The position numbers are program-made. 62,812 nt of DNA from a virus (Duplodnaviria > Heunggongvirae > Uroviricota > Caudoviricetes): IMG/VR virus record IMGVR_UViG_2511231131_000002; one strand, 5' to 3'. Shown here piece after piece: positions 49,901-55,900 of the stretch. Each line of letters begins with the position of its first letter. The first letter of the stretch is position 1.

Positions 49901-52900
49901 TGTGCCCTTATCATCTCAAGCGGTAGATTTACTCAATGAACTCAAGATCATGACAGGGAACTATCGTTATGTTTTTCCAGGGCGGAACGATCCGAATAGG
50001 CCAATGAGCGAAGCGAGTATAAATCAAGCCATTAAGCGTATTGGGTATGGAGGAAAAGTCACTGGACATGGTTTTCGTCATACCCTTTCTACAATCCTGC
50101 ATGAGCAAGGTTTTGAGAGTGCTTGGATTGAAATCCAGTTGGCTCATGTAGATAAAAATTCTATTAGGGGGACTTATAACCATGCTCAATATTTTAGTGG
50201 AAGGAAGTCTATGATGGACTGGTACAGTAATTTGATATTTGAAAGACTAAAAAGGAGTTAATTTGTGTCTCAACCACTTTCGGAAATATTGACATGGGAT
50301 GATAAACAATGGGAGGTATTTGTCCATGATTGGCTTATTGTCTGTAAATCAGATGATTACCCGTGGAGCGAACGTTTGGGAGGAGCTGGAGATAAAGGTA
50401 GAGACGTTGTTGGATATAAATCGGATCCTAACGTAGAAGGTTATTCTTGGGATAATTATCAATGCAAACTGTACAAAAAAAGTTTAGGGTTCTCTGATGT
50501 TGTAGTTGAGTTTGGAAAACTTATCTATTTTACTCTGAATGGTGATTATCCCATCCCTCAGAAGTACTTTTTTGTGGCACCCTATGATTTATCTACTACA
50601 TTTTCTAATTTATTGAAAAATAAAAACGAGCTTAAAAAAGCAGTCCTTGATTCATGGGATTCAGCAATTTCAAAAAAATAACTAAAAAGATTGATATTCC
50701 ATTAGATGATGAAATAAAAAAATATATTGAGGATTTTGATTTTAGTATTTTTTACTCTCTACCCTTATCATTGATTTTAAATGATATTGCAAATACACAC
50801 CTTTATTTTAAGTACTTTAACGAGCTGTATGTCGTGAGAATCCCTCCAAATGAAATTCCAACATACAATTCAAAAAAAGAGTCTGTATATGTTAATGCAC
50901 TGCTTCAAGCCTATTCAGAGCATGGAAATAAAACTTATAGTTCTTTCTTAGAGCTTGATGATCCATACAGACGACACTTTAATAATAGTAGAAATGATTT
51001 TTATTTTGCATCTTCGCTTGAGGTTTTTGTCCGCGAAGTATTTAAAGATGATGTATTCAAAGCATTGAAATGTTACATTTCATCTTCAATTGAACCCGTC
51101 TTTTATGAAGACCATAATTATGCATTTATTAGGTGTAATGCAGTCTTGAAGCAGGCTGTTCTGACACCAATTGCACATTCAGTACTATCAAAAATATGTG
51201 AAGCAAATGATAAAAAAGGAATATGCCATCATTTGGTTAATGATGGTGAAGTAATTTGGACGGTGAGATAATGGTTAGAATTTATAATTCAAGTTTAGAA
51301 GTGGCATGTCGAATAGCGAAAGTGCTCGTCGCTATTTATCCTTCTTCATTAAGCCTTGAACGGCTTATTTGTTTTGATTTTATTTTAGTAAATCTTAAGG
51401 ATTTTTTACCTGAAGAGATTAGTCTTCATCCTCCAATACCCCGTAGAGATGCTCAGTTAGCCCTAAAACGAGAGATTGTTTTAGAATCATTGGCTTTGTT
51501 GCAAGGCTATGAACTAGCCTCAAAAATTTATACACATCGTGGTTTTGTATATAAAGCTTCTGAAAAAACATATGCATTTACAAATTCTCTACATAATGAA
51601 TATGTTGCGCAGATGGAGCATAATATAAATTTGGTGGTTAAGTTATATAGTGATATTCCTGATGAGCAGTTGCAATCAATTATAAAAAATAAAATTGGCA
51701 AATATGATATGGAATTTAATTATGAATGACAATTTTTTTACGTTCAGAAAAATAAAGGTAACCGGATTCAATAAATTAGATACTATAATTGAATTTGGTT
51801 CTAAATTGACTATTTTATATGGTGGTTCTGACTCTGGAAAAACATACATATATTATTTGATTCGATATTTATTAGGGAGTGAAAAACTAAAAAATAAAGA
51901 TATCGATCATGCTCAAGGTTATGATTTAGCCTATCTGGAATTTAATTTTCAAGGTAGGGTAATGACAATTGAGAGGTCTCTTCAGGATAGCGCCCATTAC
52001 AGATTATATGATTCGAGCATTGAAAATGTTAGTGAAGCTAATCTGTTGATGGTTTTTTCCAAAAGTGCTTCGTCTAAAAAGAGTTTTTCATCATACTTTT
52101 ATGGTAGGTTGAATTTCAAAGAGGCTAAAGTAAGAACAAACTTAAGTAATACTCTTCATAAATTTAATCTTAATAATGTTTTTGAATTTTTTTGTATTGA
52201 TGAATTAAGAATGTTAACTGAGAAGTCGTTAATTCTTTCTGATATTCCTAGCGAGGAGACAAAAAGAAAGTCTGAATTTAAATTCCTTTTAACTCAGAGA
52301 GATGATACTAACTCCTTAGCAGAAAAACCAAATAAAAAAGCAAGATATTTTTTAAAAAATCAAATTGCAAATATTTATGAGGAATTGAAAGCGCAATTAA
52401 TTTATCCTGAATATGATCAAGTCATTGTTTCAAGAGAACTTGAGAAAGTAGAGCAAGATATTGAATCATCGAAAGATATATTGAAAGGTATTGTTGATGC
52501 ACTTGATGATAAGAAGCAATTATTAAAAGAGTTAAGTGATGAATTATATTCAATCAGTGACAGGGAAAAATACTTATCATTACTCATTGAAAGATTTAGT
52601 CTTCTTAAAGACCAATACTTTATAGATCTACAAAGAATAGATGTTGTATCACAGGCGAATTTCTATTTAAATAATTTTGCAGATATTTATTGTGAGTTCT
52701 GTAATACACCGCAAAAAAAAGAAAATGAAATATCATATGATGATTGTTTTTTGTCGTGTAATGCAGAAAAATTGAAAATCAAAAGCCAGCTGAAAGGATT
52801 AATTGAATCAATCGGATCTAATGTTCGCGAACATGAATTAATTATGTTAAGAAAAAATGATGTTAATGAAATTTATCAAGCAGAAAAAGTGATTTTAAGA

Positions 52901-55900
52901 CGTTAGAAGATAAAAATATAAAACAATACATTCATCTCTTGAATCACTTTATGAATATAAAGACAATCTTTTAATGGATCACACAAAACATAGCATTCTA
53001 TCCTCATTACAAGATAAAGAAGATGATGTTGACGAACTTAAATACTCCGCCGAGGACTTTGACTCCTTAACAGTAGCTGATTTGTATGATATAGAAATAG
53101 CGATGCAAGACTTTTTGAATGATATAAATTTTGAAAATTCTAAAGATAACAAAGTGCGATTTGACGAAGATACATATGACTTTAATATCAATGGGAAACG
53201 CCGAGGAATGTTTGGTAAAGGTACCCGTGCAGTAATGCATGCTATATTTACCATTTGCTTTGCGGAATTTTTATCAAGAAAAGGGAATCCATTCATTGGA
53301 TTTGTTGTGCTTGATAGTCCATTAGTGACGCACTTTGATAAAGATAGAGGGGTTTCTCTATCGGATGTTAATAGCGTCAGTCTCAGTGATTCATTTTATC
53401 ACGCATTAATCAAAAGGGACTATAATTTCCAGATTGTAATTCTTGAGAATAAAGGTCCGACGTTCCAAATAAAAATTAATGATGCAAATAAAATCCATAA
53501 CTTAAATAAGAATGGAAGCTCTGGTTTTTATCCTGTTTAATACATTAAAAATATAACTGCTAATTGGGGTGCTCGAAATTATATTTCGTTTCGAGCGCTC
53601 AGTTCATTTCTAAATAATTTGCAAAATTATTTTGGGTACTTTCGCCTCTACACTTCCTTCGGGTGGTTCCACAATAATGGATCTCACCGGCGTTTGATAT
53701 TTTATAATCTAACCCCTTAGCGCGCGCAGCCCCCCACGCCTGCCCGCTTCGCTTAACAGACTGGTTTTCATGCATTCCGCAAATCGTCTCAGAAGCCACC
53801 ACACAAGGGCTTTCGCGTCAAAAATGGTGCATGAGAATCATGCGTTTTCATGCGCTATAGACATGCACTCATGCGCTCTCAGGCCAGCCAGGGAAAAGGC
53901 GTAAAAAATCCCAGTACTGGACCGGGATTACGTGGGCTTTTTTTGCTAATCAGACAGGAATTTGCTGACGGCTTGACAGCTTTGACGCGGAGCCATAGCG
54001 ATTGAGAGTTTGCTGTTGTTTTTCCGGCATTTGTGCTTTCTCTGATTCCTGTTCATTGCGCCGGGGCTTCATGATTATCGTATCCACACTTTCCAGTGCG
54101 GTAAATGTGTAGGAACATTCAAGATTCTGGCACTGATACCATGAGCGTTTAACCGATGGTGCTTCATAGGCGGAGGTTCTGGCGTGTGCCGTCGTACCGC
54201 ATTCGGGACATTTAAGTGCCATTAATATTACTCCTGCATGCCGTTAATGTAATCCAGACGTTGCTGAAAGCGCAGTTGTTGTGCAGGGGTGTAAGAGCTC
54301 TGGCAATCACGAACCATCATGGGGTCAGGCATCACACCGGATTCATCCAGAATCATACGATAATCCCCGGCAATTTCAGGCGGTGTTATTGCCAGCTGGC
54401 GAACCAGAGCATTGCGTAATATACGGGACGCAACGTCAACCCCTCCGCGCCCCTTCAGGAACGGAGCCAGTGCAGATGTCAGGGCTGCTCCATTCGCCTG
54501 CATAAAATTGCTGAGAGCGTCTTCTGTGCAGGCCTCCATCAGTTGATGCTGCGAGTAAATGCATTCGCGCGCAGCACAGTTAATTTGCCATTTCAGCACA
54601 TCCAGATGTTCCCGCTGTAATTCGAGCTGTCGAGCATAATCTGCTGGTTTTTCCATGGCAGTGAGGAGTGATTCTATCTGTTGTTCAACGGCTTTTCGGC
54701 TCTCACTATGTCCAGCCCACAGAATACGGGCATTTCTAAAACTGATAAGCGCTTGGTCTGGAGTGACTCGGGCCATCATACTGCTTTCTCCTTCTCAGCA
54801 CGTTCCTGACGAACCTTCATTTTATGCATAGCTGCTGGAGAGAGTTTATTACTGAAATCCAGACGGGCCGCATAATCCGGGGCAACTCCCGCCAGTTTAA
54901 ACACGGGGTCCTGTTCGGGCATCGCATCGTTAGTCAGAGCCGGTCTGGTGATATGTTTATGAATAAAATCTTTCAGCAGTGTGTCCGGGTCATTAACTGA
55001 ATGCACCACACCGACAACTGCGCTGGCTTCCCTGCCCATTGTTGATTTGAGCAGGCTTAGTGTCTGGATTAGTGCTTTTCCATGCGACTGCATAAAATCT
55101 TCCCAGATTTGTTTTGCGCGAATACCCACAAGGGTGTCGTGCGCGTGGATATACTTTCCGGCTAATTCCGCAGCCTCCTGCGGCAAAAGTGCATTTTCGC
55201 TTTCCTGAGCCGCCAGCAGCTCATCAAAATCCTCAAGCGTTTCTCGTCCCAGCGCAATTTCCGTGCGCAGTTTTTTCATTTCCTTTGAGACTACGCCCTG
55301 ACTTTCACGAAATAGCGTGCGCCACTCCTCATTCAGGGCGTTCGTCGTGGCTTCCATTTCAGCGCGGCGCTGGCGGATTGTCGCAATATTATCCGCTGCC
55401 GCTTTTTGCTGACGACGTGCTTCAAGCCATGCAGATTTGGTGGCATTCACTTTCTCAAGCGCCTGTTGCGTCGAAACAGGGATAGAAATTTCAACGATCG
55501 GGTTATTGTTCTGTTCTGGGATTGTCATGTCAGCACCTAGTGGTTTGTCGTGGTGTCAATTGTGCTGTGATGCATACAAAGCTGCCATTGAACGCCATTG
55601 TGCGAGCGACAAGACAAAGACCTCTTTTGGCTAGCCAGAAAAGGCCTCGTTTAACTAAGTCTGTTTCAGACTTACCTTAACTATTCACTACTATTCACTT
55701 AGGTAAAAAAAATAGGTAATACAGAAGGTTATAAGGTGAAGGGTTGGCATGGCAGTATTCATCGACTGTTCATAACTGTTCACATGGGAATAAAATTATT
55801 TATGGTATTTTTTCATAATGGGTGGTTTTTTTATTCCTCGTAGCTATTTGTTTTTTGCTCCTCACCACTATTCACCCTTATTCAGGAGTATTCAACAGGC

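Follow-up and report, generated by a model that had tools for sequence, protein, structure and literature searches.

Two reading frames in a P4-like satellite are very probably remnants of a single lmuB gene in a decaying Lamassu operon

Introduction

The window, a stretch of 62,812 nucleotides from a virus of the Caudoviricetes (IMG/VR record IMGVR_UViG_2511231131_000002), contains two adjacent open reading frames, D and E, which together resemble one ABC/SMC-type ATPase. In the first-pass annotation a Walker A lobe with a coiled coil was placed in D and a lobe with a degenerate Walker B motif in E, and two readings were offered: a naturally split ATPase that binds ATP, hydrolyses it poorly and acts as a sensor, or a gene in decay. 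The locus therefore raises the question whether it encodes an ATPase made of two chains or a broken one. We are highly confident that D and E are two remnants of one gene, lmuB, which encodes an ABC ATPase of the SMC/Rad50 kind, a component of the anti-phage system Lamassu in its short form (type II, ABC-3C), and was inactivated by 1-nt deletions. In intact short Lamassu, as described in the literature, an LmuB dimer and LmuC keep a single LmuA effector in an inactive state; when DNA ends are bound and ATP is turned over, LmuA is set free, assembles into an oligomer with nuclease activity and aborts the infection.

Results

Both frames lie on the plus strand. The mechanical ORF call places D in frame 2 at 51695-52906 (403 aa, counted from a TTG) and E in frame 0 at 52974-53540 (188 aa), with 67 nt between them (52907-52973). 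The D frame is closed by a TAG at 52904-52906 and the E frame has a TAA at 52911-52913, and these coordinates bear out the different frames, the spacing and the stops in both frames that had been described at first. We corrected the start of D to the ATG at 51722 (MNDNFF..., 394 aa), in agreement with the N-termini of homologues and the RefSeq call; this ATG overlaps the stop codon of lmuC by 8 nt. Fusion of D and E had been expected to require at least two mutations, and exactly two suffice: a single A added to each of two A5 runs, run 1 at 52884-52888 and run 2 at 52912-52916, restores one ORF of 606 aa over 51722-53540. The repaired LmuB aligns without gaps to the homologues from Proteus mirabilis (P0001; 87.6% identity) and Pantoea alhagi (P0002; 75%).

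The PADLOC LmuB profile (PDLC03863) matches both D (profile positions 3-385, E=1e-73) and E (428-608 of 610, E=5.9e-37), so that, judged by profile comparison, the assignment to LmuB is far beyond chance, and the proposed ATPase class and division of lobes hold; Pfam DUF3732 matches E below its 25-bit cut-off (E=5.4e-5, 23.2 bits). Fragment D (51722-52906) consists of native residues 1-389 followed by five out-of-frame residues (VILRR), and reaches from the Walker A lobe through the ascending coiled coil and a CxxC hook into the descending coil. The Walker A motif, read from the sequence, is GGSDSGKT (residues 34-41; 51821-51844), and 29 homologues show no variation at G34, S36, D37, G39, K40 or T41. 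In the AlphaFold model of P0001 (pLDDT 81.8), helices 233-318 and 339-439 form the coiled coil, and CEFC (residues 324-327; 52691-52702) lies between them as a zinc-hook-like apex, the position of the CxxC hook in short Lamassu. C324 and C327 are invariant in the 29 homologues; short LmuB carries zero, one or two copies of CxxC. Fragment E (52974-53540) corresponds to residues 419-606, that is, the end of the descending coil and the C-terminal ATPase lobe, and is followed at the end of the operon by a terminator-like hairpin (53567-53600, plus strand; 13-bp stem and T-rich tail). Foldseek ranks solved LmuB chains first for the P0001 model (9uxh_F, E=2.9e-16; 9hqu_A; 9nyg_B), with SMC and Rad50 heads next.

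The Walker B motif in E reads VVLDSP (residues 529-534; 53304-53321), with a serine in the position of the catalytic glutamate of the canonical ABC/SMC motif (hhhhDE). This departure from DE, initially described as degenerate, is real, but it is not degeneration: D532, S533 and P534 are invariant across 29 intact homologues, down to 29% identity, and VVLDS conforms to the motif hhhhD[Q/S/T/E], and not DE or DD, published for the LmuB class of short Lamassu (PMC12663957). Two other LmuB proteins with a deviant Walker B motif, those of B. cellulasensis and V. cholerae, are moderately active ATPases (bioRxiv 10.1101/2025.06.23.660979). On the strength of this conservation we regard the D-S Walker B of this LmuB clade as a family trait and design feature, not to be taken for degeneration and no sign of decay.

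PADLOC assigns five ORFs to LmuA, LmuC and LmuB, in the order lmuA-lmuC-lmuB. The variable N-terminal effector and the conserved Lamassu C-terminal domain of LmuA are both present, distributed over two fragments on the plus strand. Fragment 1 (50265-50681, 138 aa) matches PADLOC LmuA (PDLC03852) at positions 10-140 of 336 (E=8e-41), and fragment 2 (50654-51271, 205 aa) at positions 141-333, so that the two abut at 140/141 and together cover 10-333. Fragment 2 corresponds to the C-terminal, LmuB-docking domain (Pfam CTD6 of ABC-3C systems, PF20282; E=7.7e-30, 104 bits against a cut-off of 26.4 bits). Fragment 1 carries the invariant motif GGAGDKGRDV...YQCK (D...D...QxK), and matches Pfam Mrr_cat only below the cut-off of that family (E=0.22); the effector domain is probably a PD-(D/E)xK nuclease, tentatively of the Mrr-like type. 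Alignment of the DNA with that of L006, the intact operon of Proteus, traces the frameshift between the fragments to a 1-nt deletion, TTTCC to TTTC, at 50669-50672. The small middle component between lmuA and lmuB, lmuC (51271-51729, plus strand, 152 aa; a RefSeq CDS), is apparently intact and matches Pfam MC2 of ABC-3C systems (PF20288; E=3.2e-30, 105 bits against a cut-off of 26.9 bits) and PADLOC LmuC (PDLC03871; E=2.8e-36).

The operon occupies the hotspot in which a P4-like satellite carries its cargo. Identity between the window and E. coli O55:H7 DEC5D is 100%, and the RefSeq annotation of the identical record places a P4-like tyrosine integrase at the left border (49080-50261, plus strand) and delta (ogr/Delta), psu and sid, which belong to the P4 core, at the right border (53950-55528, minus strand). 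Pfam Arm-DNA-bind_3/Phage_int_M/Phage_integrase domains were found on orthologous integrase loci, and Ogr_Delta and Psu on orthologous right-border loci. The RefSeq genes of the record include integrase, ogr/Delta, Psu, an HTH regulator, an Icd-like protein, DUF5375 and a primase-helicase, with a 'septation initiation protein' in the position of sid. The cargo thus sits between integrase and psu/delta and agrees with the defence hotspot defined for P4-like satellites (Rousset et al. 2022; PMC9122126), elements which also have sid, alpA and an alpha primase-helicase. The Lamassu cassette is AT-rich, with 27-34% GC compared with about 50% in the flanks.

Intact relatives exist. The Proteus mirabilis operon (P0001; loci L005 and L006) encodes LmuA of 335 aa, LmuC of 152 aa and LmuB of 606 aa, and shares 89.4% nucleotide identity with the window operon over 3276 positions. 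The alignment contains exactly three 1-nt gaps, all of them deletions in the window: one in lmuA and two in lmuB, each of the latter converting A6 to A5. The Pantoea locus (L008) and the related Logan contigs L009 and L010 have an uninterrupted lmuB of 606 aa at the same position, between int and delta-psu. Full-length lmuA (335 aa) is called in L006, L009 and L010, and lmuC has 152 aa throughout these loci.

We surveyed the alleles in 308 E. coli records (307 genomes). Neither a repaired 66-nt lmuA query nor a repaired 63-nt query across run 2 had an exact match in the 308 records, all of which matched with one gap (at 98.5% and 98.4%, respectively); the complete frames of lmuA and lmuB are lacking, with three 1-nt deletions in the window and no repaired allele in the 307 genomes. 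Run 1 is variable: it is A5 in 11 records (8 O55:H7-type, 3 O157:H7) and A6 in 290 (289 O157:H7, 1 O55:H7). Nine sampled loci yielded six further lesions of independent origin: three indels (+T at 52186, -A at 52713 and +A at 52851), a nonsense change at codon 211 (TTA to TAA), an insertion of IS1203 and a deletion of 670 bp. Most carriers share the in-frame TAA of codon 211. Ten substitutions were seen in lmuB, eight non-synonymous or nonsense and two synonymous. The lmuB ORF upstream of E terminates, in most O157:H7 genomes, with a TAA that overlaps the ATG of E (TAATG), an arrangement that may permit some translation of E by coupling.

The two long ORFs of the window, with their motifs kept, could suggest a naturally split two-chain ATPase, in which D and E are translated separately and rejoin through the coiled coil to form a sensor that binds ATP but hydrolyses it poorly. 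Recombinant Rad50 heads have indeed been reconstituted from separate N- and C-terminal halves. We nevertheless consider such an ATPase very improbable here. The break amounts to two 1-nt deletions relative to an intact gene of 89% identity; it removes 29 residues (390-418) from within the descending helix (339-439 in the P0001 model) instead of falling at a domain boundary; no GGAG-like Shine-Dalgarno sequence is present in the 25 nt 5' of the ATG of E; and in O157:H7, D is broken further by the nonsense codon. Homologue alignment, which had been proposed as a check, did reveal single-chain versions: P0001, P0002 and about 24 others of 594-612 aa, so that 26 of 26 close homologues (43-87% identity) are single chains, and distant full-length homologues are likewise single chains in the same length range. 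Among the best 150 representatives matching E, 86 are 590-643 aa long, the others spread continuously in length, and there is no mode near 190 aa. Separate C-terminal ORFs do occur in some metagenomic relatives, but in L016 (417 + 200 aa) they reflect a simple frameshift with overlapping open frames. P0035, a 188-aa call from Pantoea, matches by eye the C-terminal 188 residues of the intact P0002; the longest contig listed for each is the same one, of 4,239,970 bp, and P0035 is most likely an internal-Met call inside the P0002 ORF.

It is likewise highly unlikely that the operon is dead as Lamassu while LmuC, D or E is kept for another role, for instance as a dominant-negative factor against incoming Lamassu. 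The uninterrupted lmuC in 9 of 9 loci, and the persistence of fragments across the whole O55:H7 to O157:H7 radiation, would fit such a role; lmuC is short, however (152 codons), and may have survived by chance. The fragments keep gaining stops, indels and an IS element, and in L007, an independent short-read Logan assembly, a deletion fuses lmuC to lmuB; this pattern speaks against constraint.

The position of both lmuB lesions in homopolymeric A runs, a slippage-type sequence, could point to recoding, by which transcriptional slippage or ribosomal frameshifting at the two runs would still yield full-length LmuB and the split would be a regulatory device. For transcriptional slippage to be efficient, a run of about 8-9 or more identical bases is generally necessary, whereas these runs are only A5. 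Moreover, two independent corrections 28 nt apart would be required in the window, the intact relative has an in-frame A6 at both sites, lmuA would require a third correction at a non-slippery TTTC, and most carriers have the in-frame stop at codon 211, all of which makes recoding extremely unlikely. A recoded full-length LmuB would be a protein of ~70 kDa with junction-spanning peptides …QAEKSDFKTLEDKKYKTIH….

Homopolymer errors of sequencing or assembly in a gene that is really intact might be read into the variation of run 1 between assemblies, but their probability is negligible, as the run-2 and lmuA deletions occur in 308 of 308 records from many laboratories and platforms and also in L007, and A5 at run 1 follows lineage, being common to the 8 O55:H7-type genomes.

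Discussion

D and E are halves of a broken lmuB, and lmuA is broken as well; the locus is therefore an ordinary decaying gene and not a naturally split sensor. The decay suggested as one alternative in the first-pass annotation is supported by the two 1-nt deletions, the frameshifted lmuA and the further lesions in sister strains. The D/E locus is a pseudogene of an already known system and no new kind of split ATPase. Judging from the reading frames, the Lamassu system is almost certainly non-functional here.

The operon travels in the int-psu hotspot as cargo of a P4-like satellite found in the O55:H7/O157:H7 lineage of E. coli, and we propose that slippage-type 1-nt deletions inactivated it. 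The deletion in lmuA parts the nuclease domain from the docking domain. The run-2 deletion, fixed in every carrier genome tested, would be the primary lmuB frameshift, and the deletion in run 1, which creates the stop of D at 52904-52906, probably a later, second lmuB step in the sublineage of the window. After the first hit the operon would have drifted neutrally, gaining independent lesions in different strains.

We further speculate, while considering it unlikely, that an early knockout in the O55:H7 lineage struck this abortive-infection operon, which was then carried, decaying but still recognisable, in an otherwise intact-looking satellite through the whole O157:H7 radiation, its loss perhaps being selected because a sensor of DNA ends and replication could be costly alongside many inducible lambdoid (Stx, effector-carrying) prophages. 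According to a 2026 study, P4 hotspots seldom hold recognisable defence pseudogenes (<1%), and their defence systems are reportedly swapped while intact (PMC13586616); the decaying Lamassu is therefore atypical, and the persistence of an early knockout, if true, would clearly depart from the model of 'swap before pseudogenisation' in satellite hotspots.

The main value of the finding is practical. Because RefSeq lists all five pieces of the operon as ordinary CDSs and not as pseudogenes, defence predictors may count the locus as a working Lamassu in O55:H7/O157:H7 genomes. PADLOC and DefenseFinder call 'common Lamassu' in O157:H7 genomes (bioRxiv 10.64898/2026.07.23.740414), and, as a corollary of the early-knockout reading, these calls may correspond to the dead locus described here. 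The locus also provides a documented example of a P4 satellite hotspot in which a defence pseudo-operon has become fixed, a reportedly rare case, and offers a natural series of successive lesions, convenient for dating decay.

With short (type II, LmuACB) Lamassu / ABC-3C systems the operon shares the order lmuA-lmuC-lmuB, an LmuB of about 606 aa with Walker A, short coiled coil, CxxC hook and Walker B of the form hhhhD[Q/S/T/E], an MC2-type LmuC and CTD6 on LmuA (PMC12663957). The solved examples are the LmuACB complexes of Vibrio cholerae and Salmonella enterica (PDB 9uxh, 9hqu, 9hqx, 9nyg). In structure the intact homologue resembles their LmuB chains most closely, yet sequence identity is only 12-15%, and none of these chains was recovered by phmmer. 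The effector head appears Mrr-like here but is Cap4 in the V. cholerae system, and in contrast to the solved systems both lmuA and lmuB are frameshifted in the window. The Proteus mirabilis operon has the same three-gene order and the Pantoea alhagi locus the same satellite slot, but lmuB is uninterrupted in both. Rad50/SbcC and SMC heads share the bipartite ABC ATPase, with N- and C-lobes joined by an antiparallel coiled coil and a CxxC apex; the coiled coil of LmuB is much shorter, a serine replaces the Walker B glutamate, and its partners are LmuA and LmuC in an immune sensor rather than Mre11/SbcD or kleisin. As in other P4-like hotspots, an AT-rich cassette lies between int and psu/delta, but here the cargo is a fixed, decaying pseudo-operon.

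A degenerated Lamassu operon in a P4-like satellite

Five consecutive ORFs on the + strand (50265-53540) were all assigned to the Lamassu defence system by PADLOC, in the operon order lmuA-lmuC-lmuB of its short (type II, ABC-3C) form. LmuA is present as two pieces, which meet at positions 140/141 of a 336-position profile, LmuC comes next, and LmuB is divided over two ORFs, D and E, which span positions 3-385 (E=1e-73) and 428-608 (E=5.9e-37) of the 610-position profile. Independently of PADLOC, two ABC-3C families of Pfam are matched well over their cut-offs, CTD6 by the second piece of LmuA and MC2 by LmuC. 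LmuB matches AAA_23 and DUF3732 weakly, both under the Pfam cut-offs, and NCBIfam returned no match for LmuA, LmuC or LmuB. A strong terminator-like hairpin with a 13-bp stem and a T-rich tail (53567-53600, + strand) is located 27 nt past the stop codon of E and occupies the spacer ahead of the convergent P4 delta gene. The other hairpins called on the + strand of the scanned region have short stems of 6 bp and fall within coding sequence.

With 27-34% GC, the cassette is AT-rich compared with its flanks (about 50%). A P4-type integrase borders it on one side and the P4 core genes delta, psu and sid on the other; beyond these core genes are found an HTH regulator, an Icd-like gene, DUF5375 and a primase-helicase. 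This is the cargo hotspot between int and psu that Rousset et al. (PMC9122126) described for P4-like satellites. Neither ARAGORN (46000-62812) nor Rfam (48400-49100) detected a tRNA attachment site by the integrase, either as a tRNA or as a fragment of one. The orthologous satellite in Pantoea adjoins genes with ProB- and ProA-type Pfam domains (AA_kinase and PUA; Aldedh).

Just upstream of the integrase, two ORFs on the - strand (47757-48449, 230 aa; 47088-47555, 155 aa) are pieces of a single ‘type III secretion system protein’ gene, a second decaying gene, which RefSeq annotates as a pseudogene with an internal stop. Further upstream (about 40800-46700) lies the end of a lambdoid prophage with tail-fibre genes, remnants of an integrase and of a tail-fibre assembly gene, and type III effector cargo (NleB family, EspM2, NleG family and a frameshifted EspW). 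Judged by its ORF sizes, the remainder of the window, 1-40 kb, may belong to the same prophage.

Three single-nucleotide deletions split lmuA and lmuB

The first-pass annotation described D and E as the two lobes of an ABC/SMC-type ATPase, encoded in different frames and separated by 67 nt with stops in both frames, and the ORF list and raw sequence bear this out. The frame of D ends at a TAG (52904-52906), that of E is closed by a TAA (52911-52913), and E itself extends from 52974 to 53540 on the + strand; GGSDSGKT is present in D and VVLDSP in E. The start of D at 51695 is to be corrected: the TTG at that position is a mechanical ORF start only. The real start is the ATG at 51722 (MNDNFF...), which agrees with the N-termini of homologues and with the RefSeq call, and gives an 8-nt overlap with the preceding gene at its stop. 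D comprises native residues 1-389 plus five out-of-frame residues, and E comprises residues 419-606, with residues 390-418 encoded by neither.

The operon of the window (3.28 kb) was aligned with the intact operon of Proteus mirabilis, which encodes LmuA (335 aa), LmuC (152 aa) and LmuB (606 aa; P0001). The DNA sequences are 89.4% identical, with exactly three gaps, all of them 1-nt deletions on the window side. One changes TTTCC to TTTC in lmuA (about 50671), and two shorten A6 to A5 in lmuB, at 52884-52888 (run 1) and 52912-52916 (run 2). Restoring the two A's yields a 606-aa protein that aligns gap-free with P0001 at 87.6% identity, with ...QAEKSDFKTLEDKKYKTIHSSLESLYEYKDNLLMDHT... at the mended junction compared with ...QAEKSDFKRLEGKKYKKIHLLLESLYEYKDNLLMDYT... 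in Proteus. Sequencing error and programmed recoding were considered as explanations of the split, and both were rejected.

The split lmuA (50265-51271, + strand) is read as 138 aa and 205 aa, and its break point falls exactly between the nuclease head and the CTD6 docking domain. The head carries an invariant GGAGDKGRDV...YQCK motif and matches Mrr_cat in Pfam at E=0.22 only; from its sequence it is probably Mrr-like. A search of the PDB with the intact LmuA sequence was empty, and Foldseek with an AlphaFold model of the 138-aa fragment (5-sequence alignment, pLDDT 59.8) gave no match below E=0.27; the model was poor, and this result was set aside as uninformative.

Single-chain LmuB is the norm

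A naturally split sensor ATPase had been proposed as the alternative to a decaying gene, with homologues to be checked for single-chain versions. Such versions are the norm. With D as query, 26 full-length homologues of 594-612 aa were found at 43-87% identity, P0001 and the 606-aa P0002 from Pantoea alhagi among them, and four further ones of 599-605 aa at about 29-30%. The intact 606-aa lmuB occupies the same P4-like slot in Pantoea (L008, encoding P0002) and in the related Logan contigs L009 and L010, in both of which lmuA is called full-length (335 aa). An exhaustive HMMER search of 1.84 billion representatives with E gave 975 matches at E <= 0.001; 86 of the best 150 are proteins of 590-643 aa that match at their C-terminus, and the other 64 are spread continuously over 50-558 aa, with no mode at the size of E.

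Three short matches from this search were inspected, a biased sample in that they were chosen as E-sized, and no split point is conserved among them: P0072 comes from a 921-bp contig, P0114 is without a DNA record, and P0102 belongs to a lmuB homologue on a TARA ocean metagenome scaffold (L016, 1410-3265) that is read as 417 and 200 aa in overlapping open frames, a split accounted for by one frameshift. In this distant marine homologue the frameshift falls in the descending coiled-coil region, and stop and start overlap as TAATG. It may hint at recurrent inactivation of lmuB in nature; being chosen for its E-like size, it carries no information on frequency. A word-index search with E found only three proteins, including P0035 (Pantoea, 188 aa). 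As an independent stand-alone E, P0035 was rejected: its sequence matches the C-terminal 188 residues of intact P0002. The two share one 4,239,970-bp contig as the longest listed, no gene with exactly the product P0035 is on record, and P0035 is most likely an internal-Met call inside the P0002 ORF.

No Shine-Dalgarno sequence was found before the ATG of E, and a promoter scan of the D-E interval was at chance level (20 sites versus 18.2 expected). In the majority O157:H7 allele, which has A6 at run 1 (L011, L012), the TAA of the out-of-frame upstream ORF overlaps the ATG of E (TTTTAATGG, window 52970-52976). This arrangement imitates translational coupling between two genes, and probably explains why annotation pipelines accept E as a gene.

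Structure of LmuB and its Walker B motif

In an AlphaFold model of P0001 (29-sequence alignment, mean pLDDT 81.8), the N-lobe is followed by a helix (233-318), a CxxC apex (324-327), a second helix (339-439) and the C-lobe. The best PDB matches of the model are the LmuB chains of solved Lamassu complexes (9uxh_F, 9hqu_A/B, 9hqx, 9nyg_B, 9ux7_A), followed by SMC, Rad50 and JetC heads. E is thus a C-terminal ABC lobe, as first proposed. Searched against the PDB by sequence, P0001 matched no LmuB and gave only a chance coiled-coil match (E=0.078), so that the fold search was needed to establish the link. Mapped on the model, the break sits within the descending coiled-coil helix, with 29 residues lost, rather than at a domain boundary.

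The VVLDSP motif of E is real, but its description as degenerate does not stand. Each of the 29 intact homologues in the alignment, which reaches down to 29% identity, has D-S-P unchanged, and the same holds for the Walker A residues, C324/C327 and G499-K500-G501. The last (FGKG) is located just upstream of Walker B, and is a candidate substitute for the ABC signature motif. The Walker B of short Lamassu LmuB has been defined as hhhhD[Q/S/T/E], suggested to confer slow hydrolysis (Haudiquet et al., PMC12663957), and moderate, Walker A-dependent ATPase activity was measured for two LmuB proteins with a naturally deviant Walker B (bioRxiv 10.1101/2025.06.23.660979). Because of the invariance, the published motif and the measured activity, the D-S-P Walker B is a documented class trait, and no evidence of decay.

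Spread of the lesions in E. coli

The window matches E. coli O55:H7 DEC5D at 100% identity. Among 5426 complete E. coli genomes, 308 have the locus, with >=99% identity in every case, and these are O55:H7/O157:H7-type strains. Short queries with the mended alleles aligned over their full length with all 308 records at 98.4-98.5% (one gap), and had no exact match. In the 307 genomes tested, both the lmuA deletion and the run-2 deletion of lmuB are accordingly fixed. The run-1 deletion (A5) is found in 8 O55:H7-type and 3 O157:H7 records, whereas O55:H7 DEC5B and 289 O157:H7 records have A6. This deletion, the source of the 67-nt gap layout of the window, came later and is in the minority; judged on the linked G/T SNP background, it looks to have arisen twice.

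Nine sampled loci contain six more independent lmuB lesions: +T at 52186, +A at 52851, -A at 52713, TTA to TAA at codon 211 (shared by all sampled O157:H7 loci that have kept this codon), an IS1203 insertion at 52154 and a 670-bp deletion fusing lmuC to lmuB. Ten substitutions were seen in lmuB, two of them synonymous and eight either non-synonymous or nonsense. This pattern is expected after a first inactivating hit lifts selection. In at least one O157-type genome, that of E. coli strain 272 (L014), sid (the equivalent of window 54776-55528) is itself annotated as frameshifted, and the whole P4-like element, beyond its cargo, may be decaying in this lineage.

Comparison with known Lamassu systems

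By the published Lamassu mechanism, a LmuB dimer with LmuC would have sequestered one LmuA in the intact ancestor (PMC12663957; bioRxiv 10.1101/2025.06.23.660979). Binding of DNA ends and ATP turnover would release LmuA, and the freed LmuA would oligomerise into an active nuclease, aborting the infection. For the present locus, the best-supported statement from its sequence is that it is non-working: the effector has been severed from its docking domain, and the break in the ATPase lies inside the coiled coil.

The family, the Walker B variant, the structure and the occurrence in P4 hotspots are already published, and as a pseudo-operon the locus is of a known type. RefSeq carries the fragments without a pseudogene flag. 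A 2026 preprint that examined four O157:H7 strains reports a predicted ‘common Lamassu’ in three of them (bioRxiv 10.64898/2026.07.23.740414), which may be this dead locus. Since recognisable defence pseudogenes were very rare in P4 hotspots in a 2026 survey (PMC13586616), a lineage-fixed Lamassu pseudo-operon is a noteworthy exception.
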